A stretch of 64,000 nt of DNA, taken from contig CP045477.1 in NCBI GenBank assembly GCA_009392915.1, positions 768,001 to 832,000 of the forward strand, given 5' to 3'. The DNA is from Candidatus Forterrea multitransposorum CG_2015-17_Forterrea_25_41. GTDB taxonomy: Archaea > Iainarchaeota > Iainarchaeia > Iainarchaeales > CSSED10-239. Each line of letters opens with the position of its first letter. Position 1 is the stretch's first letter. Of this stretch, positions 21,221 through 63,000 are shown piece after piece. The notes under the pieces are model-generated. The model was not told where the DNA came from. It ran no database searches and saw only the letters and a program-made list of their open reading frames with translations. The position numbers were made by a program, and so were the translations under genes.

Positions 21221-22267
21221 TTATTCTTTCTTCTCTATTGTATATGTCTTTTTCTTTTGATTAATTTCAGTAATATATAGTTTAATATTTTTTTCTTCTA
21301 AATAATTATTTATTTTTAAAATAATTTCTTTAGAATCTATTTTTTTAAAAGTAGCTTTTTCAATAATTTTATTTATTTGGTCTACAAGTGTAAAATTAGA
21401 ATAAATAAATTCTCCTTCTTTTTCAAGAGTCTTTATTTTTTCTTCAAACTGTTCTTTTTTATCTTCTTGTGATTTTAGTATTTCTGAAACTTTGTTTTTT
21501 TTAATAGTTTCTTTAACTTCTTCTTTTTTTTCAAAGAAATTTTTAAACTCGTTTTCAAAAGAATTAAATATATCTTCTCCATCTCTTGAAATTATAAAAC
21601 TATTTTTATTATTTTTATTGATTTTTTTTACCCCTGGGTTTTCAAGCTCATAATTTTGGTAAATATTTTCAATTAATTGCTTTTTAGAATCTAATATATC
21701 ATTAATTTCCATAGGAGCAATATTATATTTTCTTGAAAGCACTCTAATTTTTTCAGGATCTGTTAAATCTTTTAATTCTTCTTCTATTTCTTTTTTATTT
21801 TTAAGTTTAATATCTTCTCCAGAAGGGAAATTATAAGTTTCTCCTTTCTGAATAGTTCTATCTTTCCATTCTTCTTTTTGTCTTGAGGTTATTATCTTAA
21901 AATTTTCATCTGTTAAAATTACATTTGATTTTGAAAAGAATTCAAATATTAAATAATATTTATCAAGTTTAAAACAAATTACTTTATTATTTTTATCTTG
22001 ATAGATATCATGTATTCTTTGATTATATAATTTTTTTTTAAGATATTTTTCAAATCCTAAAATTTCTGAAACTGGAAAAGTATGTTTTGGTAAAAAACAT
22101 ATTTCAGGAGTTATAATTAGTTCTTTTGTTTTTTTAGAATGTATTTTTATTTTCCATATCTTGTTATCAATAGTCTGCACATTATTAATATATCCTAAAT
22201 TAAATTCTTCTTTTAATTTTTTAGCGATATAATAAAAAACAGTACTTGTGGTTTGTATATTTTCCAT
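21221..22267 (-). CDS. NFACT-N domain protein (Rqc2/NEMF/FbpA N-terminal-like); no NFACT-R domain
   Basis: The pattern ICFLPKHTFPV...RIHDIYQDKNNKVICFKL...YLIFEFFSKSNVILTDENFKII fits NFACT-N (Q..DRil.l.f ... LivElfg.gNiiL.d). Confidence 0.45.
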   Translation of the reverse strand: MENIQTTSTVFYYIAKKLKEEFNLGYINNVQTIDNKIWKIKIHSKKTKELIITPEICFLPKHTFPVSEILGFEKYLKKKLYNQRIHDIYQDKNNKVICFKLDKYYLIFEFFSKSNVILTDENFKIITSRQKEEWKDRTIQKGETYNFPSGEDIKLKNKKEIEEELKDLTDPEKIRVLSRKYNIAPMEINDILDSKKQLIENIYQNYELENPGVKKINKNNKNSFIISRDGEDIFNSFENEFKNFFEKKEEVKETIKKNKVSEILKSQEDKKEQFEEKIKTLEKEGEFIYSNFTLVDQINKIIEKATFKKIDSKEIILKINNYLEEKNIKLYITEINQKKKTYTIEKKE

Positions 22268-22270
22268 AAA

Positions 22271-23335
22271 TTATTCATTACTATAATCTGTATATTCTAG
22301 GTTGTTATAAGAATATATTTTTTTAACTATTTTTTTATTGTTAAACCTATATTCTTCATAAAGTTTGTTTACATCAGTATTTTTATAAGTATCCATAGGT
22401 ATATTTTGAACAATATCTAAAATATAATAAGTTTCTTTAATCTTTGTACTTACAAAAGAATGTACTTTATCATCTTCAAGTAAAACTACTTCTATGCTTG
22501 ATAAGTTATCTTGCATTCCTTGCATTACAGAACAAAGAATAACTGATATTGTTTGTTCATCGCAAATTTTTTCAGAAATAATTTTTGAAAAATCCATCCA
22601 AAAAATAACTTTTAAATCATTTTCAATAACATCAATTTCTGTTCTTAGATAATTATATATTTTTCTAAGTGTTGTTAAATAATCTTTATTATAATCATAA
22701 GCAATTGGTGTGAATTTTGAAATTATACTTTTTATTGTTAAATCATTTGGTTTTACCATTTCTTTAAGTTGAGAAATAGTTTTTCTTTCATCTTCGTTTA
22801 TTAAATCTTTATATTTATTAATAATTATTGAATAATATTTAATTTTATTAATATCTTCTTCGCTAGCTTTTGTTTCTGTATTTTTTTTAATATTTTTAAT
22901 AAAATCTTCAAGTTCTTTAATTCTTTCTTTTAAATTTAAATTTTCAACTTCAAGTTCACTAACATCTCCTTTTATTTTAAGATTTTTAAATCTTAGTTCT
23001 TCTTCAGGAGAGTCATCTTTTTGTATTTTTGTAAGGTTTGAAACTTCTAAATTAATTTTAGTTTCTATTTTTTTAAGTTCGTCATTAATTTCTTTTAATG
23101 TTTTTGAATATATTGATTCATCAATACTTTTTGCTGTATATCTATAAGAAAGTTCTTTTTTTTGTTCTAAAAGTTCTTTTTTCTTAGTATTTAAATTTTC
23201 AATAATCTGCCATGTTTTTTGTTCTTTGTTAATAGGGTCTTTTTTCTTAACTCTTAAATTAACTATAGCTATAATTGTACCAAATGACAAAAATATAAAA
23301 ATTATTATTAATATCTGTGAAAAATTAATTGACAT
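22271..23335 (-). CDS. Membrane-anchored coiled-coil protein with a possible C-terminal transglutaminase-like Cys-His-Asp core
   Basis: N-terminal TM segment, coiled-coil middle, C-terminal ICDEQTISVILCSVMQG ... VHSF ... YILD. Confidence 0.3.
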   Translation of the reverse strand: MSINFSQILIIIFIFLSFGTIIAIVNLRVKKKDPINKEQKTWQIIENLNTKKKELLEQKKELSYRYTAKSIDESIYSKTLKEINDELKKIETKINLEVSNLTKIQKDDSPEEELRFKNLKIKGDVSELEVENLNLKERIKELEDFIKNIKKNTETKASEEDINKIKYYSIIINKYKDLINEDERKTISQLKEMVKPNDLTIKSIISKFTPIAYDYNKDYLTTLRKIYNYLRTEIDVIENDLKVIFWMDFSKIISEKICDEQTISVILCSVMQGMQDNLSSIEVVLLEDDKVHSFVSTKIKETYYILDIVQNIPMDTYKNTDVNKLYEEYRFNNKKIVKKIYSYNNLEYTDYSNE

Positions 23336-53180: not shown

Positions 53181-54176
53181 ATGTCTTATAACTACATTAT
53201 CAAATATCCTTTTTCAAACAAAGCAAAAGAATATTTAGAATCAAAAGAAATTGATCTTTTTTCAATTAATGAAGAAACTATTAAAAAAGCAACTTTGTTT
53301 ATTTTAAAAACTGTTTTTCAAGACATACAAGAAAATGAAAAACAATGGAAAGAATATCTTAGAATTGATGATGAAAGAATCGCAAAAATGTTTGCAACCT
53401 TATATCCTTTATCAAGAATTCTTTTAAATGTAGTAGACTATAATCCTCTTTATCAAAGATTTGGTGAATACTATCAAAAACAATTGCATTATTATTTAAA
53501 ACAACTTTTAGATAAAGAAGAATTTAAAGAAATACAAGATGATTTATGTAAAGAAATTAAATTTGATGAGGATAAAAACAAATATTATCTAAATTTAGTT
53601 GAATATTTATCCTTAAACTTAACAGATGATTATAAATTACAATATTCTAATCTTGATGATGGTAAAATTTATTTTACAAAATTAGAAGTTATTGATTTAT
53701 TATCTGTAATTTTAAAGAAGAGAATTTTAAAAAATATAGATCTTGAAAAAAAAGATCTTCCTAAATTATTTTTAGAATATGGGGATTATATTAGAAAAAA
53801 AGTAATTTCTGAAAATACTTTTGACATTAAAACAATTAATAAACCTGAAGTTAATACTTTTCCACCATGCTTTTTAAAAATATATAACAAACTTATAGGT
53901 GGAGAAAAACTATCTCATATTGAAAATTTTTATATTGCTGTTTTTTTATCTAACATAGGTTATAATTTTGATGAAATATTACATCTTTTTAAAAACTTAC
54001 CAAACTATGATGAAAAAATTGCAAGTTATCAAATCCAAAAAATAATTGAAAAAAAATATGCAGTTCCAAATTGTGATACTCTAAAAAGCAATGGTTTATG
54101 TGTTAATGATTGTAAAACAAAACATCCTTTTCAATTGTTTAAAAATATAAAAAAAGGTGAAAAAACAAATGAATGA
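53181..54176 (+). CDS. priL: DNA primase large subunit PriL
   Basis: The C-terminal Fe-S domain pattern FPPCFLKIY...HIENFYIAVFLSNIGY...PNCDTLKSNGLCVNDC carries the four Cys ligands. Confidence 0.65.
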   Translation: MSYNYIIKYPFSNKAKEYLESKEIDLFSINEETIKKATLFILKTVFQDIQENEKQWKEYLRIDDERIAKMFATLYPLSRILLNVVDYNPLYQRFGEYYQKQLHYYLKQLLDKEEFKEIQDDLCKEIKFDEDKNKYYLNLVEYLSLNLTDDYKLQYSNLDDGKIYFTKLEVIDLLSVILKKRILKNIDLEKKDLPKLFLEYGDYIRKKVISENTFDIKTINKPEVNTFPPCFLKIYNKLIGGEKLSHIENFYIAVFLSNIGYNFDEILHLFKNLPNYDEKIASYQIQKIIEKKYAVPNCDTLKSNGLCVNDCKTKHPFQLFKNIKKGEKTNE

Positions 54177-55689
54177 TCAAAAAGTACTTTTACTTATATT
54201 AGATGGTGTGGGAGTTAATAAAGAATATCCAGGCAATGCTCCATTTTTAGCAAATACAAAAACATTAGATTCTTTAATTAAAAAATATCCTTATCTAGAA
54301 TTAGGTGCAAGTGAAGAATATGTTGGACTTTCAAAAGGACAGATTGGAGGTTCTGAGATTGGTCATTTAACAATTGGTGCTGGTAGAATAGTCCTTTCAG
54401 ATATTGAAAGAATTAATAGATCAATAAAAGATAAATCTTTTTTTAAAAATAAAATATTAAACCAAGCTTTTAAGGATGTTAAAAAAGATAATTCTCTTCA
54501 TATAATGGGTCTTTTAAGTGATGGTGGAGTTCATTCTCATATTAACCATTTATTTGCTTTAATTGATATGGTTAAATTAAAAAAATTAAAAAAAGTATAT
54601 TTACATCTTTTTGGAGATGGTAGAGATGTTCCTCCTAAATCTATTCTTGAATATATTTCAAAATTAAAAGCATACATCTATAAAAGAAAATTAGAACATG
54701 TAATTGAGATTGCAAGTCTTGCAGGTAGATATTATGCAATGGATAGAGATCATAAATGGGATAGAATTGAAAAAGCTTACAAAGTAATTGTTACCGGAGA
54801 AGGAAATATTGATGATAGTAAAGCTGTATTTATAAAAAAAAGCTATAAAAAAGGAATTACAGATGAATTTTTAGTTCCAACTTTATTTGATAAAGATGCT
54901 TTAATTAAAAACAAAGATACAGTTATTTTTTTTAATTTTAGAAGTGATAGAGCAAGAGCAATATCAAGTGCTTTTATTGATAAATCTTTTAAAAATTTTA
55001 AAACTAAAAAATTAAATCTGAATTTTTATTCTTTTACTCAATATGATAAAAACTTTAAAAATCTAAATGTTATTTTTCCTCCATTAAAACCAGCTACAGG
55101 TTTAGGACAAATAATTTCAAAGCTTGGTTATAAACAATTAAGAGCTGCAGAAACAGAAAAATATGCACATGTAACTTATTTTTTTAATCAAGGTCAAGAA
55201 AAAGCAAACAAAAATGAAGATAGAATATTAGTTCCATCTCCAAAGATTTCAACTTATGATCTTATGCCAGAGATGTCTCTTTTAAAGTTAATTAAAAAAG
55301 TAATTCCTGCAATTAAGAAAAACTATAAATTAATGGTTATTAATTTTGCAAATGGTGATATGGTTGGACATACTGGAAATTTACATTCTACAATTTCTTC
55401 TTTAGAGTATATGGATGATTCTATTAATAAAATATTAAAAACAATTGATAAAAAAACAACTTTGATAATTACTGCAGATCATGGTAATTGTGATGAAATG
55501 ATTTATCCTGACAAATCAATGAGTACAGCTCATAGTTTAAATAAAGTTCCATTTATTTTAGTGTCTGATAAGTTTTCTTTGAAAAAAAATATTAAAAAAC
55601 CAACTCTTGCAAATATTGCTCCAACAATTTTAGATATTTTAGATGAAAAGATACCAAAAGATATGGATAAATCTCTTTTAAAAAAATGA
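54157..55689 (+). CDS. gpmI: 2,3-bisphosphoglycerate-independent phosphoglycerate mutase, bacterial GpmI type
   Basis: LLILDGVG, SDGGVHSH, ADHGN. Length is about 510 aa. Confidence 0.8.
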   Translation: MKKQMNDQKVLLLILDGVGVNKEYPGNAPFLANTKTLDSLIKKYPYLELGASEEYVGLSKGQIGGSEIGHLTIGAGRIVLSDIERINRSIKDKSFFKNKILNQAFKDVKKDNSLHIMGLLSDGGVHSHINHLFALIDMVKLKKLKKVYLHLFGDGRDVPPKSILEYISKLKAYIYKRKLEHVIEIASLAGRYYAMDRDHKWDRIEKAYKVIVTGEGNIDDSKAVFIKKSYKKGITDEFLVPTLFDKDALIKNKDTVIFFNFRSDRARAISSAFIDKSFKNFKTKKLNLNFYSFTQYDKNFKNLNVIFPPLKPATGLGQIISKLGYKQLRAAETEKYAHVTYFFNQGQEKANKNEDRILVPSPKISTYDLMPEMSLLKLIKKVIPAIKKNYKLMVINFANGDMVGHTGNLHSTISSLEYMDDSINKILKTIDKKTTLIITADHGNCDEMIYPDKSMSTAHSLNKVPFILVSDKFSLKKNIKKPTLANIAPTILDILDEKIPKDMDKSLLKK

Positions 55690-55695
55690 TTTTTT

Positions 55696-56724
55696 ATGAA
55701 TATTATAAAAATAGATTATAAAACAAAAGAAATTGTTTTCATTCCTCAAACAATAGAAGATTTATGGGTTATAAAAACTATTGCTCAAGAAGGAGATGTT
55801 ATAAGTGGTAGTTCATATAGAAGACTTAAAAATGAACAAACAGGAGATAGTGATAGAAAACCTGTTTTTGTGAAAATTGATATTGAAAAAAAAGATTATT
55901 CTTCAACTCTTAACTCTTTAAGATTTACTGGAAAAATATTTTTTTCAAAACCAGAAGACTTTGCACCCTTAGGAGAATATCATACCTTAGAAGTTTCTCT
56001 TCAAAATAAATTTTCAATTACTAAAAAAGAACTTTTTGATTTTCAAATTGATCTTTTAAAAAATGCATCTTCTTTAAAAAATAAAATTAATGTTGTTATT
56101 TTAGATGATGAAATTTCTGAAATTTATATGTTATCTGGAATTTCAAATGAAAATATTGCAGTTATAAAATCAGGTAAACATGGAAAAAGATATAATCAAT
56201 CATTTGATTTTACTAACTTTTTTGAATCTATTTATTCTGTTGTTTCAAACAATAAAGAACAATTGATTATTGCAGGCCCAGGAGGTACTAAAAATTTATT
56301 TTCAAAATATTTAATTGAAAAGTATAGTCTTTCATCTTTAGTTGTAAATCTTTCAAGTACTTCTAAATCTGCAATTAATGAACTTTTAGGTAAAAAAGAA
56401 ATTTTAAAATTTTTTGAAAATTCAATTATTGTAAAAGAAAAAAACATGATTGATTCTTTTAAAGAAAATCTTGGAAAAGATAATTCTCTTGCAATCTATG
56501 GTTATACTGAGATTTTAAATATTTTAAGTACAGGTGCCTGTGATTTTATTTTAATATCTTATTCTTTTTGGCAAAAAGATATTGATAAAGTACAAAACTT
56601 AATTAAAGAAGCTGAGAAATATAAAACAAAAGTTCATGTGGTTGATGAAAGACATGAAGAAGTAATTAAAACATTAAATTCTTTTGGTGGAATTATTTCT
56701 GTTTTAAGATATAAGTTATTTTAA
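55696..56724 (+). CDS. pelA: Pelota/Dom34 ribosome rescue factor
   Basis: N-terminus MNIIKIDYKTKEIVFIPQTIEDLWVIKTIAQEGDVISGSSYRR matches Pelota. eRF1-like domains 2-3 (IIAGPGGTK). Confidence 0.75.
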   Translation: MNIIKIDYKTKEIVFIPQTIEDLWVIKTIAQEGDVISGSSYRRLKNEQTGDSDRKPVFVKIDIEKKDYSSTLNSLRFTGKIFFSKPEDFAPLGEYHTLEVSLQNKFSITKKELFDFQIDLLKNASSLKNKINVVILDDEISEIYMLSGISNENIAVIKSGKHGKRYNQSFDFTNFFESIYSVVSNNKEQLIIAGPGGTKNLFSKYLIEKYSLSSLVVNLSSTSKSAINELLGKKEILKFFENSIIVKEKNMIDSFKENLGKDNSLAIYGYTEILNILSTGACDFILISYSFWQKDIDKVQNLIKEAEKYKTKVHVVDERHEEVIKTLNSFGGIISVLRYKLF

Positions 56725-56754
56725 AAAAATAAAAGTAGATGGTTAAAAATAAAA

Positions 56755-57024
56755 TTAACCATGTATTTTAGTATCTTTTGCTTGTTTGATTGGAGTCTTT
56801 GCAACATCCATTTTCTTTTCAAGCATTTCTTTTTCTTCTTGTGCTTTTCTAAGAGTTCTTGTCATGTAACCTGCCATTAAGTTAATAGTTAACTTAGATA
56901 AAGGAAGTTTCATGCCTTTTAAAAAATTTTTATTAGTTTCAAATTCAATACCTACTTTGTCACTAAATTCTGTCATTATTATTTTTGCCTTTGCTTTTAT
57001 GCTATTTGATACTGCTTTTCCCAT
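56755..57024 (-). CDS. rps17e: 30S ribosomal protein S17e (eS17)
   Basis: IKAKAKIIMTEFSDKVGIEFETNKNF...PLSKLTINLMAGYMTRTLRK matches the S17e pattern (vKr.Ak.ii.kY...dF..NK...iPSK.lRN.iAGYvTr). Confidence 0.65.
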   Translation of the reverse strand: MGKAVSNSIKAKAKIIMTEFSDKVGIEFETNKNFLKGMKLPLSKLTINLMAGYMTRTLRKAQEEKEMLEKKMDVAKTPIKQAKDTKIHG

Positions 57025-57026
57025 AA

Positions 57027-57230
57027 TTAATTCACACTTATAATTTGTCTTTCTCCATTAACATCTCTAATTACTGCTAATGGTATTGTTTTTTTTAAAT
57101 ATTCTTTTTCTGCTAGAATGTATGCTGTATCTTCCTTTGTACTTCTTACTAAAGGAGGTGCACCATATGCTATTTGCTCTGCACGAGCAGATAATATTCT
57201 AGTTATTTCATATTTTGTTAATTTTTCCAT
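57027..57230 (-). CDS. rpoK: DNA-directed RNA polymerase subunit K (Rpb6 homolog)
   Basis: LTKYEITRILSARAEQIAYGAPPLV...YILAEKEYLKKTIPLAVIR. Confidence 0.8.
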   Translation of the reverse strand: MEKLTKYEITRILSARAEQIAYGAPPLVRSTKEDTAYILAEKEYLKKTIPLAVIRDVNGERQIISVN

Positions 57231-57405
57231 AGATTTTCATTTTTTAAAGTTTTTAAAAAATTAGATGTTTATAATATAATATATATCATAAATGCTTATA
57301 AATGTATTTTTTTTAAAGACTTTATGTTATTTTTATTTAAATGTTATTTTTTGTACAACCATAATGTTTTTATTATGTTTTAATATATAATTATATTGAT
57401 TATAT

Positions 57406-57945
57406 ATGGCTGTTATAAAGAAAATAAATGATTCAATAAGAGTAAAAATTTTATCTGCTATGACAAGAAAAGGAGCTGTTGTTCCAAATATTAGGCAGAT
57501 TAAAAAAATTACTGGTTTTCATAGAGCTACAATTAAATCTTCAATTGATTTTCTTGAAAATGAAAAATTTGTTTTAGGGTATCGTCCCTTATTAGATCCT
57601 TTAGTTGCTGGTTATAATTTAAAATCATCTTCTTATTTTCAAGTTGATCTTTCTTTAAAAGAAAAACAAAAAGAACTTCTTGATATTTTAAAAAAAGATA
57701 AAAATGTTTTATCAGCTTCACAAGTAATTTCTGATGGAGATTTTAATATTGCAATTTCTTTTCTTTCAAAAAATATTGAATCTTTTCATAATAGTTTAAG
57801 AGAAAAATATGTTTACAAAATACCGAACTATTATGATTTTATAAAAAAATCTTCAAGTTATTATTTATCTTCTCCAATCTATAAAGATAAAAATGAAATT
57901 GATGTGTTAATTGATTTATTAAATGAAGAACAAGGAACTGAATAG
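57406..57945 (+). CDS. HTH-type transcriptional regulator (Lrp/AsnC-like?)
   Basis: N-terminal HTH (NIRQIKKITGFHRATIKSSIDFLENEKFV) plus a C-terminal domain. Confidence 0.35.
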   Translation: MAVIKKINDSIRVKILSAMTRKGAVVPNIRQIKKITGFHRATIKSSIDFLENEKFVLGYRPLLDPLVAGYNLKSSSYFQVDLSLKEKQKELLDILKKDKNVLSASQVISDGDFNIAISFLSKNIESFHNSLREKYVYKIPNYYDFIKKSSSYYLSSPIYKDKNEIDVLIDLLNEEQGTE

Positions 57946-57947
57946 AA

Positions 57948-58757
57948 ATGTCTGTTGAAATCAATTATACTTTATCTGCTGGAAGAAATGCAGAAAATAA
58001 GTATTTAGAACGAAATAAGTTTAAATCTAAACTAGATGGTGCAAATAAAGCTATATTAATAACTAAACAAAAGATTGATTCTCAAGATAAAAAAATTATT
58101 GAAAAACAAAAAAATAAAATCAATGTTTTAAAAAAGACTGAGAAGAAAAAAGAATGGTATCATAAATTTAGATTTTTCTTTACAACTAATGGTTTCTTAG
58201 TATTAGGTGGAAAAGACACTAAAAATAATGATTTCTTAATAAAAAAACATTTAAAAGAAAATGATCTTTATTTTCATGCTGATGTTCATGGAGCACCACA
58301 TGTTATTTTAAAAAATGATTTAAAAAAAGAAATTCTTGAAGAAGATAAAATAGAAGCCGCATGTTTTGCTTTAATTTTTTCTTCAGCTTGGAAAACAAAA
58401 TCTTTTTCAGCAGAAGTTTATTCTGTTTCTCCTGATCAAGTTTCAAAAACTGCAAATACAGGTGAATCTTTAGGTTCAGGGGCTTTTGTTATAAGAGGAA
58501 AAAGAATATATTATAAAAAATTAAACTTAAAATTAAAGTTAATTTATGATTCAAAGCTTGGTCTTTATCCTTTCCCAGTACTTTTAACTTATAATGATAA
58601 TTTAAATAAAGATGAATTTTATTTAATTCCAGGTAGTTTAAAGAAATCAGATGTTTCAAAAGAAATTAAAAATTTATATTTTAAAAAAGGAATATCTTTA
58701 TCTCAAGAAGAAATAGACTCTTCACTTCCTCCTGGATCTTTTGAATTAATTAAATAA
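57948..58757 (+). CDS. NFACT-R (DUF814) domain protein
   Basis: TNGFLVLGGKDTKNNDFLIKKHLKENDLYFHADVHGAPHVILK...IEAACFALIFSSAW matches the NFACT-R/DUF814 core. Confidence 0.65.
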   Translation: MSVEINYTLSAGRNAENKYLERNKFKSKLDGANKAILITKQKIDSQDKKIIEKQKNKINVLKKTEKKKEWYHKFRFFFTTNGFLVLGGKDTKNNDFLIKKHLKENDLYFHADVHGAPHVILKNDLKKEILEEDKIEAACFALIFSSAWKTKSFSAEVYSVSPDQVSKTANTGESLGSGAFVIRGKRIYYKKLNLKLKLIYDSKLGLYPFPVLLTYNDNLNKDEFYLIPGSLKKSDVSKEIKNLYFKKGISLSQEEIDSSLPPGSFELIK

Positions 58758-58840
58758 CTATTAAAACACTTTGGTTCATAAATATATATATTATTTTATT
58801 AAACTTATTTTTTAAAAAAAATTTAACTTTGTGATAATTA

Positions 58841-60976
58841 ATGGTTGAAAAAAAACAAGACTCAATTAAACTAAAAGTACAAGAAGCTTCTGAAGATTTT
58901 GTAGGTAAAAACATAGTTAAGCTTGACATTATGGTTAAGCAAAAGCTAAATATAATTTCAGGAGATATTATTTTAATTAAAGGTGATGATTTTACCGCTG
59001 CACAGGTTTGGCCTGAAAAAAATAAAGCTGGTGAAGAAAACATTATTAGAATGGATCAATACACTAGAAAAAATGCTAATGTATCTATTGGTGATTTTGT
59101 AACTATTAAAAAAATAGAACCTGTTGTTGCAAAAGAAATTGTTTTAGCACCTTTAAAAGAAGTTAATTTATTTTCTGAAAATCAAGATCTTATTATTAAA
59201 AAGAATTTTTTAGGTAGACCTTTTGTTAATGGTAACCATGTAATGATTAATATTTTTGGTTCAAATTATCTTTATGAAGTTACAAACACATCTCCTTCAA
59301 AAATAGTAATTCTTTCAGAAGAAACAAATCTTATTATAAATAAAAAACCAGCTTCTAAAAAAGAAATTAAACAAATTATTGGTTATGAGGATGTTGGAGG
59401 GTTAAAACCTGAAATTGAAAAAATAAGAGAAATGGTTGAGCTTCCTTTTAAATATCCTGAATTTTTTGAAAAATTAAATGTAACTCCTCCAAAAGGAATT
59501 TTACTTTATGGACCTCCAGGAACAGGAAAAACTTTACTTGCAAAAGCTTTATCAAATGAACTTAAAGCAAACTTTATAGGTATTGATGCTCCACAAATAA
59601 TGGCAAAGTTTGTAGGCGAAGCTGAAGAAAAATTAAGAAATATTTTTAAAAAAGCACAAGCAAAAACACCTGCAATTATTTTCATAGATGAAATTGATGC
59701 AATTGCTCCTAAAAGAGATGGGTTTATTTCTGAAGTTGAAAAACGTGTTGTTGCACAACTTTTAGCACTTATGGATGGTACTTCTTCAAGAGGGGATGTA
59801 ATTGTAATTGGTGCAACTAATAGACAAGATGATATTGATCCAGCACTTAGAAGACCTGGAAGATTTGATAGAGAAATTGATGTTAATGTTCCAAATGAAG
59901 AAGGTAGACTTGATATTTTAAAAATACACACTAGAAATGTACCTTTAGTAAAAGATGTAAACTTAAAAAAAATAGCCCAAGTAACTCATGGTTTTGTAGG
60001 AGCTGATCTTTCTGCTTTAGTTAAAGAAGCTGCAATTATTGCAATTAAAAGTAAAATTTCTGATATTTCTTCTCCTAAAAAAGAAATTTCTTCAAAAATT
60101 TTAGAAAACTTAGCAATCTCTAAAGAAGATTTTGAAAAAGGTTTAAAAGTAGTTCAACCTTCTGCTTTAAGAGAAGTTTTTGTTGATCTTCCAAATATAA
60201 ATTACTCTGATTTAGGAGCTTTAAAAGAACAAAAAGAAACTCTTTCTGAAATAATTAATCTTTCTCTTGAAAGAAAAAGTCTTTTACAAAAATATAATGT
60301 TAAAACCATTAAAAATATTTTAATTTATGGTCCTCCAGGAACTGGAAAAACTTCTTTTGTAAAAGCAACTGCAAAAGAACATGGTATTAATTTTTTATAT
60401 GTTAAAGGTCCTGAAATCTTTAATAAATGGGTTGGAGAATCAGAAAAAACAATTAGACATATTTTTAAAAAAGCTAAATCTGTCGCTCCTTCAATTTTGT
60501 TTTTTGATGAAATAGATTCTCTTACTCAAAGACATGATGATTCTATTGGAAACATAAAAGTTCTAGATCAACTTTTATCTGAACTTGATAATTTAGCTGG
60601 AAAAGATGTGTTGTTTATATGTGCTACAAATAGACCTGAAATTATAGATAAATCTTTTTTAAGAAGTGGAAGAATAGATAAATTTATGGAATTTAAACTT
60701 CCTACAAACAAAGAAAGAAAAGAAATATTATCCCTTCTTTTATCAAAAACTCCACATGAAAAAATAGATTTAGATGAGATTGTAAATCTTACAAATAATT
60801 TTTCTCCTGCAGATTTAAATCTTTTAATTACTGAATCTGTATTTTTAACTTTAAAAGAAAATAAGTATAAAGAATCTAAATTAACAAAAGAAGCTATCTT
60901 AAAAACTTATTCTAAATTAAAAAATAAAGTCTCACAAGGTCAAGTTCTTTCAGGAATATCTAAATATGTTAATTAA
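58841..60976 (+). CDS. cdc48: CDC48/VCP-like AAA+ ATPase with two AAA domains
   Basis: Two Walker A motifs (GPPGTGKT), two Walker B motifs (IIFIDEID and ILFFDEID), and an N-terminal double-psi barrel-like domain. Confidence 0.9.
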
Positions 60977-61632
60977 ATTATTCCTGAAAATAACAAATAT
61001 CCACCAATTGAGATTGCCATTAAGATTACCCATAAAAAAGGGCTCCATAAAAATATAGCTTTTCCATCAAGTGGTCCGAATGGTAGTAAATTAAAAAAAG
61101 AAATCCATAAATTAATTAATATTCCTAAAGATAAAATCATTCCAACAATTGTACTTTGAGTTGTAATTATACTTGCAAGTAAAACAAAGATTCCTGCTAA
61201 AATAATATTTGTGATTGGTCCTACAGCAGAAGTAATTCCATTTTCTTTAACAGAAAGTCTTTTTCCAAAAATATATACTGCTCCAGGAGCTACAAAAACA
61301 AAACCAAAAATAAATGCAAAAAAAACTGCAAAATATAAAGGTCCATTCCATTTTACAAATTTTGCTTTTGCACCATAATATATTCCTGCATATTTGTGTG
61401 CAAGTTCATGTAAAATAAAAGCAGTTCCAGTTACAACTAAGCTAACAACTAAAAATAATATGAAAGTAATTATTGAAAAATCATTAAAGTTTGAAAGATT
61501 AAATAAATTGTATCCTCCTAACACTAATGCAAAACATAAGGAAATTCCAAGCCAAGCTATAACTATATCTTTAATTTCACTTGTGTTTTTAGGTTTCATT
61601 TCAATTTTATCTTCAAAAAAATCTTCACTCAT
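60973..61632 (-). CDS. Site-2 protease family (M50) membrane metalloprotease
   Basis: HExxH in a TM segment (FILHELAHKYAG) and a C-terminal NLLPFGPLDG motif. Confidence 0.7.
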   Translation of the reverse strand: MSEDFFEDKIEMKPKNTSEIKDIVIAWLGISLCFALVLGGYNLFNLSNFNDFSIITFILFLVVSLVVTGTAFILHELAHKYAGIYYGAKAKFVKWNGPLYFAVFFAFIFGFVFVAPGAVYIFGKRLSVKENGITSAVGPITNIILAGIFVLLASIITTQSTIVGMILSLGILINLWISFFNLLPFGPLDGKAIFLWSPFLWVILMAISIGGYLLFSGII

Positions 61633-61650: not shown

Positions 61651-62400
61651 TTAGATATCTATTGTAGGAAACAGTTTTAAAAAGTTATTAATGATTTTTT
61701 CTTTTACTTTTTCTAAAGGCATATTATATTTCTTTGAAAAAACTTCATATGATTCTTTAATACTTTCAATAGTTGTTTCTTTTCCATTTTGCCATACAGG
61801 AAGATCTGTTTCAATAAATATTTGATCTAAATGTTTTTCAATATTTTCAATCTTTGGTTTTGCAAATCTTTCGGTTAAAAAATATCCTCTAGATAAGGCT
61901 TCTTCAATTTCTTCTTTTTCAGCTGTAAACCAATGAAGTATAGTTTTAACTTCTGGATATGATTTTAAAATTTCTAAACTTTCTTTAACAGCTCCTCTAG
62001 TATGTACTACTATTGGTTTTTTTAAAGTTGCTGCAATTTCAATTTGTTTTCTAAATAATTTTTCTTGTAATGAAATATTAAAAGGATTTTCTGTAATTTT
62101 TTTATCCATTCCAATTTCACCAATAACAAGTGCTTCACTAAAATCTATTTCTTCAAGATCTCGTTCTATTTTTTCAAAATCTTTTTTTAAAACATTATCA
62201 GGATATAATCCATATCCAAAATAAAGATTAGGTATATTTTCAGCTTTAATTTCAAGATATTTTCTATAATCTTCTATGTTTGTTGACTGTGCAATAGCTA
62301 TTAACGGTTCATTTGTAAATTTTTGTTTGATATCTTGAATAGTTATTTGATCATAATGACAATGCATGTCAAGATAATGCTTATATTTGTTTGTTTGCAT
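61651..62400 (-). CDS. tatD: TatD-family metal-dependent hydrolase
   Basis: N-terminal DMHCHYD, internal HWFT, C-terminal FIETDLP. Confidence 0.65.
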   Translation of the reverse strand: MQTNKYKHYLDMHCHYDQITIQDIKQKFTNEPLIAIAQSTNIEDYRKYLEIKAENIPNLYFGYGLYPDNVLKKDFEKIERDLEEIDFSEALVIGEIGMDKKITENPFNISLQEKLFRKQIEIAATLKKPIVVHTRGAVKESLEILKSYPEVKTILHWFTAEKEEIEEALSRGYFLTERFAKPKIENIEKHLDQIFIETDLPVWQNGKETTIESIKESYEVFSKKYNMPLEKVKEKIINNFLKLFPTIDI

Positions 62401-63000
62401 ATATTATATATGGTTCAATTTAATTATAAAGATTTTCTTTTAAATCTTTCAAAAGAGGTTTATCCTCCCTTAGAAGACACTTTTTTAATGTTAGATTCTT
62501 TAGAAAAAGAATTTGTTAAAAATGATAAATCTTTTTTAGAGATAGGTTCAGGTTCTGGAATAATTTCTTTAAAGGCAGCATCTTTTTTTAAAAAGATTAC
62601 ATCTATAGATATTGATGAAAATGTAATTAATCATTTAAATTTACTTAAAGAAAAATATTCTTTAGACAACCAAATAATTATTCAATCAGATTTATTTTCT
62701 GCAATTGAAGATGAAAAATTTGATTGTATTGTTTTCAATCCTCCTTATGTACCTTCAGAACAAATTGAAGTTCTTTCAACTGATGGTGGAGAGGAAGGTA
62801 GTGAAATAATTTTAAGATTTATTTCTCAATTACCTAATTTTTTAAAAAAGAATGGTGTCTGTTATCTTTTAGTTTCTTCTCATAATAATCTTGATGAAAT
62901 TTATTTTGAATTGAAATTTAACAAATTGAAATTTGAACCAGTTTCTGAAAAAAACATATTTTTTGAAAAATTAATTGTTTTAAAAATAAGTGATCAGTAA
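62323..63000 (+). CDS. N5-glutamine methyltransferase Mtq2/HemK-like (release-factor methyltransferase). The likely start is MVQFNYKD... at about 62410.
   Basis: SAM motif EIGSGSGIISL and substrate motif FNPPY. Confidence 0.7.
   Translation: MFDILNSYLIIMTMHVKIMLIFVCLHILYMVQFNYKDFLLNLSKEVYPPLEDTFLMLDSLEKEFVKNDKSFLEIGSGSGIISLKAASFFKKITSIDIDENVINHLNLLKEKYSLDNQIIIQSDLFSAIEDEKFDCIVFNPPYVPSEQIEVLSTDGGEEGSEIILRFISQLPNFLKKNGVCYLLVSSHNNLDEIYFELKFNKLKFEPVSEKNIFFEKLIVLKISDQ

Follow-up and report, generated by a model that had tools for sequence, protein, structure and literature searches.

The window analysed here, a 64-kb stretch (23.9% G+C) of the genome of the Iainarchaeota-like DPANN archaeon Candidatus Forterrea multitransposorum (contig CP045477.1, positions 768,001 to 832,000), contains two open reading frames (ORFs) that are complementary halves of one archaeal RqcH, the homolog of eukaryotic NEMF/Rqc2 in ribosome-associated quality control (RQC). 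The N-terminal half, rqcH-N (348 aa; 21221..22267, minus strand), was identified with the family model NF041120, a family profile, an AlphaFold model and its residue states, and comprises NFACT-N, the HhH region, the first coiled-coil helix, and the M-domain helices together with the first two beta-strands of that domain. The C-terminal half, rqcH-C (269 aa; 57948..58757, plus strand), was recognized by PF05670, NF041120 and its own family profile, and supplies the third M-domain strand, the second coiled-coil helix, NFACT-R and a C-terminal (NFACT-C-like) domain. Our overall explanation, to which we assign a probability of roughly 60%, is that a single ancestral rqcH gene underwent fission into two unlinked genes, that the products would act together as a two-chain RqcH, and that the gene cluster kept around rqcH-C would reflect a coupling to the unfoldase Cdc48.

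One RqcH encoded by two unlinked genes

We compared both ORFs with NF041120, the NCBIfam model of archaeal RqcH (645 positions). rqcH-N aligned to model positions 6-375 (E 2e-31, 109.5 bits) and rqcH-C to positions 381-643 (E 1.7e-76, 258.4 bits), with neither half reaching the equivalog cutoff of 400 bits. Both ORFs therefore align to a single archaeal RqcH model and not to unrelated NFACT families, and their joint tiling bears out the split NEMF that a first-pass annotation of the window had proposed. When the 64-kb window was scanned with a profile of fused archaeal RqcH, derived from 68 homologs, the same two ORFs were returned, at profile positions 4-379 and 381-647, and no further RqcH ORF; a full-length NEMF homolog, the presence of which the annotation had flagged as decisive, was thus not found among the sequences of the window. 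Such a tiling of one RqcH by two ORFs is far beyond chance.

The identity of rqcH-N was revealed by NCBIfam, profile-to-PDB searches and structure prediction rather than by Pfam, in which the window protein has no match even at E<=10; PF05833 is silent on it, and does match its relatives. The rqcH-N family profile aligned to residues 13-385 of human NEMF (E 2e-16), and also to the N-terminal domains of FbpA/PavA. Its earlier description as a protein with only an NFACT-N domain was too narrow, because the HhH region, the first coiled-coil helix and the larger part of the M domain belong to it as well. NFACT-R (DUF814) of rqcH-C was matched over its full length by PF05670 (1-112 of 112, E 4.5e-34), and the rqcH-C family profile aligned to NEMF 461-654 (E 9.5e-51), yeast Rqc2 505-686 and B. 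subtilis RqcH 360-529. NFACT-C (DUF3441) is without a Pfam match in this protein and yielded a weak match to NEMF 999-1047, while the NF041120 alignment runs to position 643 of 645 and the C-terminal domain is confident in the AlphaFold model described below. All residues that are invariant across the fused homologs are retained in rqcH-C of the window.

The two genes, separated by 35.7 kb and encoded on opposite strands, have a start and a stop each and lie exactly at the coordinates of the first-pass annotation, which had put the gap between rqcH-C and cdc48, of 83 nt, at about 80 bp. The rqcH-C frame opens at 57942, with an in-frame stop directly upstream. This arrangement does not fit truncated ORF calls, an assembly error or a pseudogene that arose by frameshift or disruption; all that speaks for such an artefact is that ORFs in metagenome assemblies are often fragmented. 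Moreover, the same two proteins occur in dozens of independent assemblies, including a complete genome and contigs of up to 977 kb, and their residues are strongly conserved. We regard an artefact of this kind as refuted.

Position of the break and distribution of the split

We joined the two window halves head to tail, aligned them with the 68 fused homologs and predicted the structure of the joined chain with AlphaFold. The model had a mean pLDDT of 87.6, rising to 97-98 near the junction. In it, the N-terminal half forms the NFACT-N sheet, the HhH helices, a long helix (231-290), two short helices and strands 331-336 and 341-346, and the C-terminal half continues, past the chain break at 348|349, with strand 349-354, a long return helix (359-410), NFACT-R and the C-terminal domain. 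Helices 231-290 and 359-410 flank the two short helices and a three-stranded sheet; the result is a coiled-coil hairpin capped by the M domain and built from elements of two different polypeptides. Foldseek retrieved NEMF on the 60S subunit as best match (9gy4_Z; E 7e-31, TM 0.65), followed by yeast Rqc2 and B. subtilis RqcH, and matched NFACT-N to 6pon, 5h3x and 3doa. When the two window ORFs are read together, the domain set and order of NEMF, Rqc2 and B. subtilis RqcH are complete, and the predicted fold superposes on the forms of these proteins that are bound to the large subunit.

According to this model, the chain is interrupted in a variable beta-turn of the small M domain, where the coiled-coil hairpin has its tip. 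The corresponding segment of fused proteins forms a strand, a turn and a strand, with a loop of 3 to 21 residues (in P. furiosus, ...NKVTLNLDG|IKVSLDVEKSLEENA...), and fission therefore placed a stop and a start codon in a permissive M-domain hairpin. In Bacillus this M-domain element makes the contact to uL11 at the stalk base, and the tRNA is read by NFACT-N (PMC8373112). On the strength of the predicted fold we consider it quite probable that the halves reassemble non-covalently, through an antiparallel coiled coil and beta-sheet completion, and that the resulting two-chain RqcH would engage obstructed 50S-peptidyl-tRNA particles in the manner of the fused protein.

The split is not a local oddity. 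The rqcH-C family comprises 70 database clusters, nearly all of 257-275 aa, with identities down to 35% and on contigs of up to 158 kb; the rqcH-N family comprises 64 clusters, nearly all of 341-383 aa, on contigs of up to 977 kb. An exhaustive search yielded 2892 relatives of rqcH-C, and among the best 150 representatives 51 were shorter than 300 aa and 81 were at least 560 aa long. Almost all of the short forms (49/51) begin with Met and have residue 1 aligned to query residues 1-3, and a neighbour-joining tree largely grouped the short forms together. We then considered the best 80 reference-genome loci. About 47 of these 80 have an in-frame stop just upstream of the C-terminal half, at the same junction, and are thus split; a further 30 have open frames of 612-724 aa and are clearly fused. 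The titles of split loci name Iainarchaeum/Diapherotrites (including the complete AR10 genome), Forterrea, Micrarchaeota and Woesearchaeota; the fused loci belong to Thermococci, Thermoplasmatota, Methanocellaceae, Hadarchaeota, Bathyarchaeia, Asgard groups, one Nanohaloarchaeon and one Micrarchaeote, with no Iainarchaeota title among the fused members of the 80 best loci.

These data show that the gene has undergone fission and that the split is a clade-wide DPANN trait with one conserved junction. They also qualify the first-pass annotation, which had taken a single polypeptide of about 650 aa as the archaeal norm and had suggested a check of whether relatives carry a fused gene: the norm holds in other archaea, which indeed have fused genes, whereas within the clade the split form is common. 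A scan of all loci with the N-terminal part of the fused-RqcH profile found the N-terminal half near the C-terminal half in a single split locus, from Woesearchaeota (L081, 7490-10777), where the N-terminal half (315 aa), a complete CysRS-like gene (469 aa) and the C-terminal half (261 aa) follow one another on one strand. We therefore discarded a split in place as the usual arrangement, since it is rare and confined to this locus among those scanned.

Split genes as such are known from Nanoarchaeota and other DPANN, in which reverse gyrase, tRNA synthetases, Dph1/2 and others are affected (reviewed in PMC6349945). The present case belongs with these, as it too concerns an information-processing protein of this superphylum that is made from two separately located genes, but RqcH is not among the cases reported in the literature that we searched, and its junction is common to several DPANN phyla and not limited to the most reduced genomes. 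Single-chain RqcH/NEMF proteins span ~570-700 aa, in contrast to the two unlinked genes of the window. Burroughs and Aravind described the NFACT core architecture only as a single chain, with Mut7-C/AMMECR1 as the only archaeal neighbours (PMC4075521). Our literature search found no earlier report of a split archaeal RqcH, of "aRqcH" or of an archaeal NEMF-Cdc48 link, and a survey of archaeal gene fusion and fission, including its eight supplementary files, does not mention NFACT, DUF814 or COG1293.

A conserved gene order around rqcH-C

In the window, rqcH-C is preceded by a gene on the same strand (57406..57945, plus strand) whose stop lies 2 nt before the rqcH-C start. Its 179-aa product drew only weak, sub-threshold GntR/Lrp matches from sequence models. 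The structure predicted for it with database homologs (pLDDT 88) combines a winged helix-turn-helix (HTH) with a beta-alpha-beta-beta-alpha-beta domain, and Foldseek placed it with the archaeal Lrp/AsnC structures 2cyy and 1ri7 (E 1.8e-9, TM up to 0.80), as expected of a protein resembling the Lrp/AsnC-type (feast/famine) regulators. Downstream of rqcH-C lies cdc48 (58841..60976, plus strand), which encodes a 711-aa double-ring AAA+ unfoldase of the Cdc48/VAT type with CDC48_N, CDC48_2, two AAA domains and lids. This protein scored 764.5 bits against TIGR01243, slightly under the cutoff of 802.65, and has two GPPGTGKT Walker A motifs and the aromatic pore loops KFVGEAE and KWVGESE. Convergent to cdc48 is a gene for a membrane metalloprotease of the M50 (site-2-protease-like) family (60973..61632, minus strand; PF02163 E 1.7e-7, HELAH motif), and the 3' ends of the two genes overlap by 4 nt (60973-60976).

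Comparison of loci by tblastn of the window proteins located the Lrp-like gene immediately upstream of the C-terminal half in 35/47 split loci and cdc48 downstream of it in 34/47, usually followed by the convergent M50 gene. As a control for background synteny, we scored 22 window genes between 44 and 63 kb in 22 distant loci, defined by a C-half identity <50% and a length of at least 13 kb. Lrp-like, cdc48 and M50 genes were retained in 21/22, 22/22 and 21/22 of these loci, respectively; each of the remaining 18 genes was found in 0-1 of the 22, except for one that was present in 6. In Iainarchaeota-type genomes the conserved unit therefore consists of the Lrp-like gene, rqcH-C and cdc48 in this order and direction, closed by the convergent M50 gene, and the linkage of NFACT-R to cdc48 that had been remarked upon extends well beyond background synteny. 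Fused genes differ in this respect. The best fused match (P0135), from Pyrococcus furiosus, was tried as an instance of the fused form beside cdc48 and rejected, as no cdc48 is nearby; indeed, no fused locus, P. furiosus included, has cdc48 within 10 kb of rqcH, and the gene was nearby in 0/30 other long loci.

Pelota is not part of this unit. The gene (55696..56724, plus strand) encodes a 342-aa Pelota/aDom34 protein with eRF1 domains 1-3, whose full-length match to TIGR00111 is borderline (177.4 bits, cutoff 177.65); in Pfam, eRF1_1 and eRF1_3 exceed their cutoffs and eRF1_2 scores 25.6 against 27.1. The first-pass annotation had grouped pelota, the NFACT-R protein and cdc48 into one ribosome-rescue neighbourhood, and they do lie within 5.3 kb on the plus strand. 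Linkage of this sort does arise in archaea, since pelota is directly downstream of fused rqcH in loci from Methanocellaceae (L069) and Thermoplasmatota (L070), where it starts 21-29 nt past the end of the fused rqcH match; this linkage is independent of that in the window. However, S17e (56755-57024) and RpoK (57027-57230), both encoded on the minus strand, separate pelota from the Lrp-like gene, and pelota is therefore outside the transcription unit of the latter and rqcH-C. It is near the C-terminal half only in the closest relatives (L007, L008, L013, L014) and in 1/22 distant loci, and a 54%-identical relative has a Cdc6/Orc1 gene upstream where the window has pelota. Kept only in the closest relatives, pelota is a real ribosome-rescue gene in a context that is not a conserved module, and a three-gene rescue operon, largely refuted by these data, strikes us as very improbable.

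The 83-nt spacer between the rqcH-C stop and the cdc48 ATG (58758..58840, plus strand) is AT-rich, with a T6 run (58808-58813) and a TATA-like element (58770-58792, tttggttcataaatatatatatt) that is common to the close relative L006. Elsewhere this spacer is mostly 42-195 nt long, with three loci at 12-21 nt, and in eleven loci extra ORFs intervene between rqcH-C and cdc48. The 54%-identical relative carries a gene of 256-261 aa, without family match, between the two (L001-L003, 10799-11584), and insertions of 0.3-2.1 kb occupy this position in other loci. In distant loci (L015-L084) of Iainarchaeota-type genomes the spacer contains a 19-nt element, TTA[CG]CTTTTTAATCCTTTT, located 25-130 nt upstream of cdc48. 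A search of 836 kb allowing up to 2 substitutions returned 14 matches, of which 13 were directly upstream of cdc48. The element stays with cdc48 where other ORFs separate this gene from rqcH-C, and the TATA-like stretch of the window and L006 differs from it in sequence but occupies the same place.

We read this pattern as cdc48 having a putative promoter or operator of its own, with TTA[CG]CTTTTTAATCCTTTT as the candidate element and possibly a target of the Lrp-like protein. The operon-level linkage to cdc48 proposed in the first-pass annotation is thus doubtful, as a promoter-like element that travels with cdc48 sits in the spacer. The Lrp-like gene and rqcH-C almost certainly form one transcript, and rqcH-C and cdc48 are best described as a conserved adjacency, probably co-regulated, rather than as demonstrated co-transcription. 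The Lrp-like protein and the element upstream of cdc48 would give such co-regulation and not strict co-transcription.

Other genes of the window were noted alongside these. Upstream of pelota, a phosphoglycerate mutase gene (54157-55689, plus strand) matched the iPGM model TIGR01307 at 593 bits, far above apgM-type models. This model we take to represent a bacterial-type enzyme, and the gene may have been transferred. Beyond two minus-strand genes after cdc48, a methyltransferase of the HemK2/MTQ2 family, which methylates release factors, is encoded on the plus strand (62323-63000; TIGR00537 118 bits, cutoff 87) and was found there in close relatives only. Next to the N-terminal half, a minus-strand gene (22271-23335) specifies a 354-aa protein without family match, in which a membrane segment at the N-terminus is combined with a long coiled coil. 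The gene stops 3 nt short of the rqcH-N start, overlaps the N-terminal half by 14 nt in L089, and persists next to it in relatives, together with a block of more than 10 genes, at 44-48% identity. We rejected this protein and its gene block as a core partner of the N-terminal half upon their absence from a distant locus (P0133), which is one data point.

Residues of the N-terminal pocket and alternative readings

The dyad equivalent to B. subtilis D97-R98 is DR in 53/68 and ER in 15/68 of the fused archaeal homologs, but N94-K95 in rqcH-N of the window and N[RK] in 63/65 members of its family. Likewise, the N-terminal Asp position is D/E in 65/68 fused proteins, V10 in the window and V/A across the close family. 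The [DE]R dyad was kept in the two most distant split N-halves and in the one from Woesearchaeota. These are residues of known consequence: in Bacillus, D97A/R98A abolished tRNA-Ala recognition and tailing (PMC8373112), and in yeast D98A alone rendered Rqc2 tailing-deficient (PMC5562442). Since V10 and N94 stand in for both acidic NFACT-N residues, the chemistry of tailing or the choice of tRNA may have changed or disappeared. The changed positions are fixed and show no drift, so rqcH-N is under selection although its handling of tRNA may differ; an altered or lost tailing activity would leave a scaffold role dominant.

Several observations weigh against a two-chain RqcH that is coupled to Cdc48. 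The structure was modelled on a chain that had been joined artificially, with fused sequences in the alignment, so it speaks for compatibility and is not proof of association. rqcH-N is far more diverged than rqcH-C (E 2e-16 and 9.5e-51 to NEMF, respectively), it has lost the D10 and D94 acidic residues, and its gene lies 35.7 kb from that of rqcH-C, on the other strand, without sign of co-regulation. The search for a full-length paralog covered the 64-kb window, with the remainder of the genome outside it. As to the link with Cdc48, cdc48 has its own conserved promoter-like element, the link is absent from Woesearchaeota and most Micrarchaeota split loci, and in two loci with a C-half identity of 52-54% (L009, L012) cdc48 is missing from its place and M50 directly follows rqcH-C. 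Finally, the convergent M50 gene is conserved equally well, and the cluster is therefore not simply an operon.

The points on the halves lend some credit to a sub-functionalisation of the split genes, in which RqcH-C alone would serve as an RNA- or ribosome-binding factor of the CCDC25/Jlp2 kind with Cdc48, and RqcH-N would have drifted to a tailing-independent role. The unlinked position of the halves in separate conserved blocks, their asymmetric divergence and the loss of the acidic pocket residues would all suit this alternative, as would the existence of standalone NFACT-R proteins in eukaryotes (PMC4075521). CCDC25/Jlp2 likewise present a short coiled coil plus NFACT-R as an independent polypeptide, and CCDC25 was also among the structural matches. 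However, the rqcH-C profile reached CCDC25 only at ~1e-3, as opposed to 9.5e-51 for NEMF 461-654, and rqcH-C additionally carries the NFACT-C-like domain and one M-domain strand; it is the ortholog of the RqcH C-terminus, with a putative NFACT-C, and not of CCDC25. Furthermore, since the break divides one beta-sheet and parts the two helices of a single coiled coil, each half on its own would expose an amphipathic helix of ~55 residues and an incomplete sheet. One and the same clade has kept both halves, with strong conservation and a comparable number of clusters for each. We therefore judge sub-functionalisation unlikely.

A second alternative concerns the cluster, which may be inherited order without functional meaning, held together for instance by overlapping 3' ends or shared regulatory DNA of cdc48, M50 and the Lrp-like gene, with rqcH-C as a passenger. 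This would account for the promoter-like element that follows cdc48 past intervening ORFs, for an M50 gene as conserved as cdc48, for the absence of the link in other split lineages and at all fused loci, and for the loss of cdc48 from its position in L009 and L012; larger synteny blocks also persist around the N-terminal half at moderate divergence. Against it, these four genes stayed across the 22 distant loci in which the 18 other neighbours were lost, rqcH-C sits between the Lrp-like gene and cdc48 in the same direction, with spacers of 12-21 nt in three loci, and the pairing agrees with the known eukaryotic pathway (PMC5562442). A passenger rqcH-C thus has a real chance of being correct, albeit one that we place clearly below even.

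The maintenance of the rqcH-C cluster while other gene order decayed would point to a functional coupling of RqcH-C and Cdc48, for which we see the odds as evenly balanced. We infer this tie because gene-order conservation coincides with the eukaryotic pathway: in yeast, Cdc48 acts downstream of Rqc2, and Pelota/Dom34 upstream, and recruitment of Cdc48 depends on ubiquitination and Rqc1 (PMC5562442). In eukaryotic RQC a NEMF homolog is likewise paired with the Cdc48 unfoldase, whereas the link in the window is one of genomic adjacency alone. RqcH-C would mark or hold the stalled 50S-nascent-chain complex, and Cdc48 would extract or unfold the chain for proteolysis. To our knowledge, ubiquitination and Rqc1 are missing from most archaea; genes for Ltn1, Rqc1 or ubiquitin were not noticed among the window ORFs examined, although no search was aimed at them.

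The Cdc48 of the window can be set beside the archaeal Cdc48/VAT-20S proteasome system, reportedly described by Barthelme and Sauer in 2012, with which it shares the double ring, the N domain and the aromatic pore loops. It differs at the C-terminus. The canonical HbYX motif for 20S docking has its Tyr at -2, but the window protein ends in ...KYVN, with Tyr at -3, and relatives end in ...SYVG, TYVR or RYIQ. Across 27 loci the linked Cdc48 tails conform to ...[PK][ST]Y[VI][GRQNH], with the Tyr at -3 conserved, and this tail of the ...[ST]Y[VI][GRQNH] type is similar to HbYX but distinct from it.

What is new here is an RqcH made from two genes and its link to Cdc48, which is specific to a lineage and strongly conserved there; split genes as such are an already known DPANN trait. 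As late as 2022 archaeal RQC was still termed "previously unrecognized" (PMC9540759). The process is essentially uncharacterised in these organisms, and our data bear on the question of which factors stand in for Ltn1 and ubiquitin on the way from RqcH to proteolysis. The sole strongly conserved gene order around rqcH-C joins the NFACT-R half to Cdc48, a membrane protease and a regulator; it makes Cdc48 a candidate for the archaeal extraction factor and offers a lead on the possible disposal of unfinished proteins in archaea. An RqcH that occurs naturally in two pieces, divided precisely at the M-domain tip, shows which parts are separable and lends itself to reconstitution, and rqcH-N naturally varies at the residues that, when mutated, cost the yeast and Bacillus proteins their tailing activity. 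As a discrete character, the common junction may also be of use for DPANN relationships. A more far-reaching proposal, which we put forward as a speculation with small odds of being right, is that Iainarchaeota would have a minimal, ubiquitin-independent RQC in which a two-chain RqcH with a disabled pocket would not tail nascent chains but act as a 50S sensor and scaffold, its separately made C-terminal half (NFACT-R plus NFACT-C) recruiting the neighbouring Cdc48 directly to extract the chain, under amino-acid-sensing control by the Lrp-like protein through the conserved element upstream of cdc48. If true, these archaea would provide a living model of an ancestral NEMF-Cdc48 connection that predates Ltn1 and ubiquitin.

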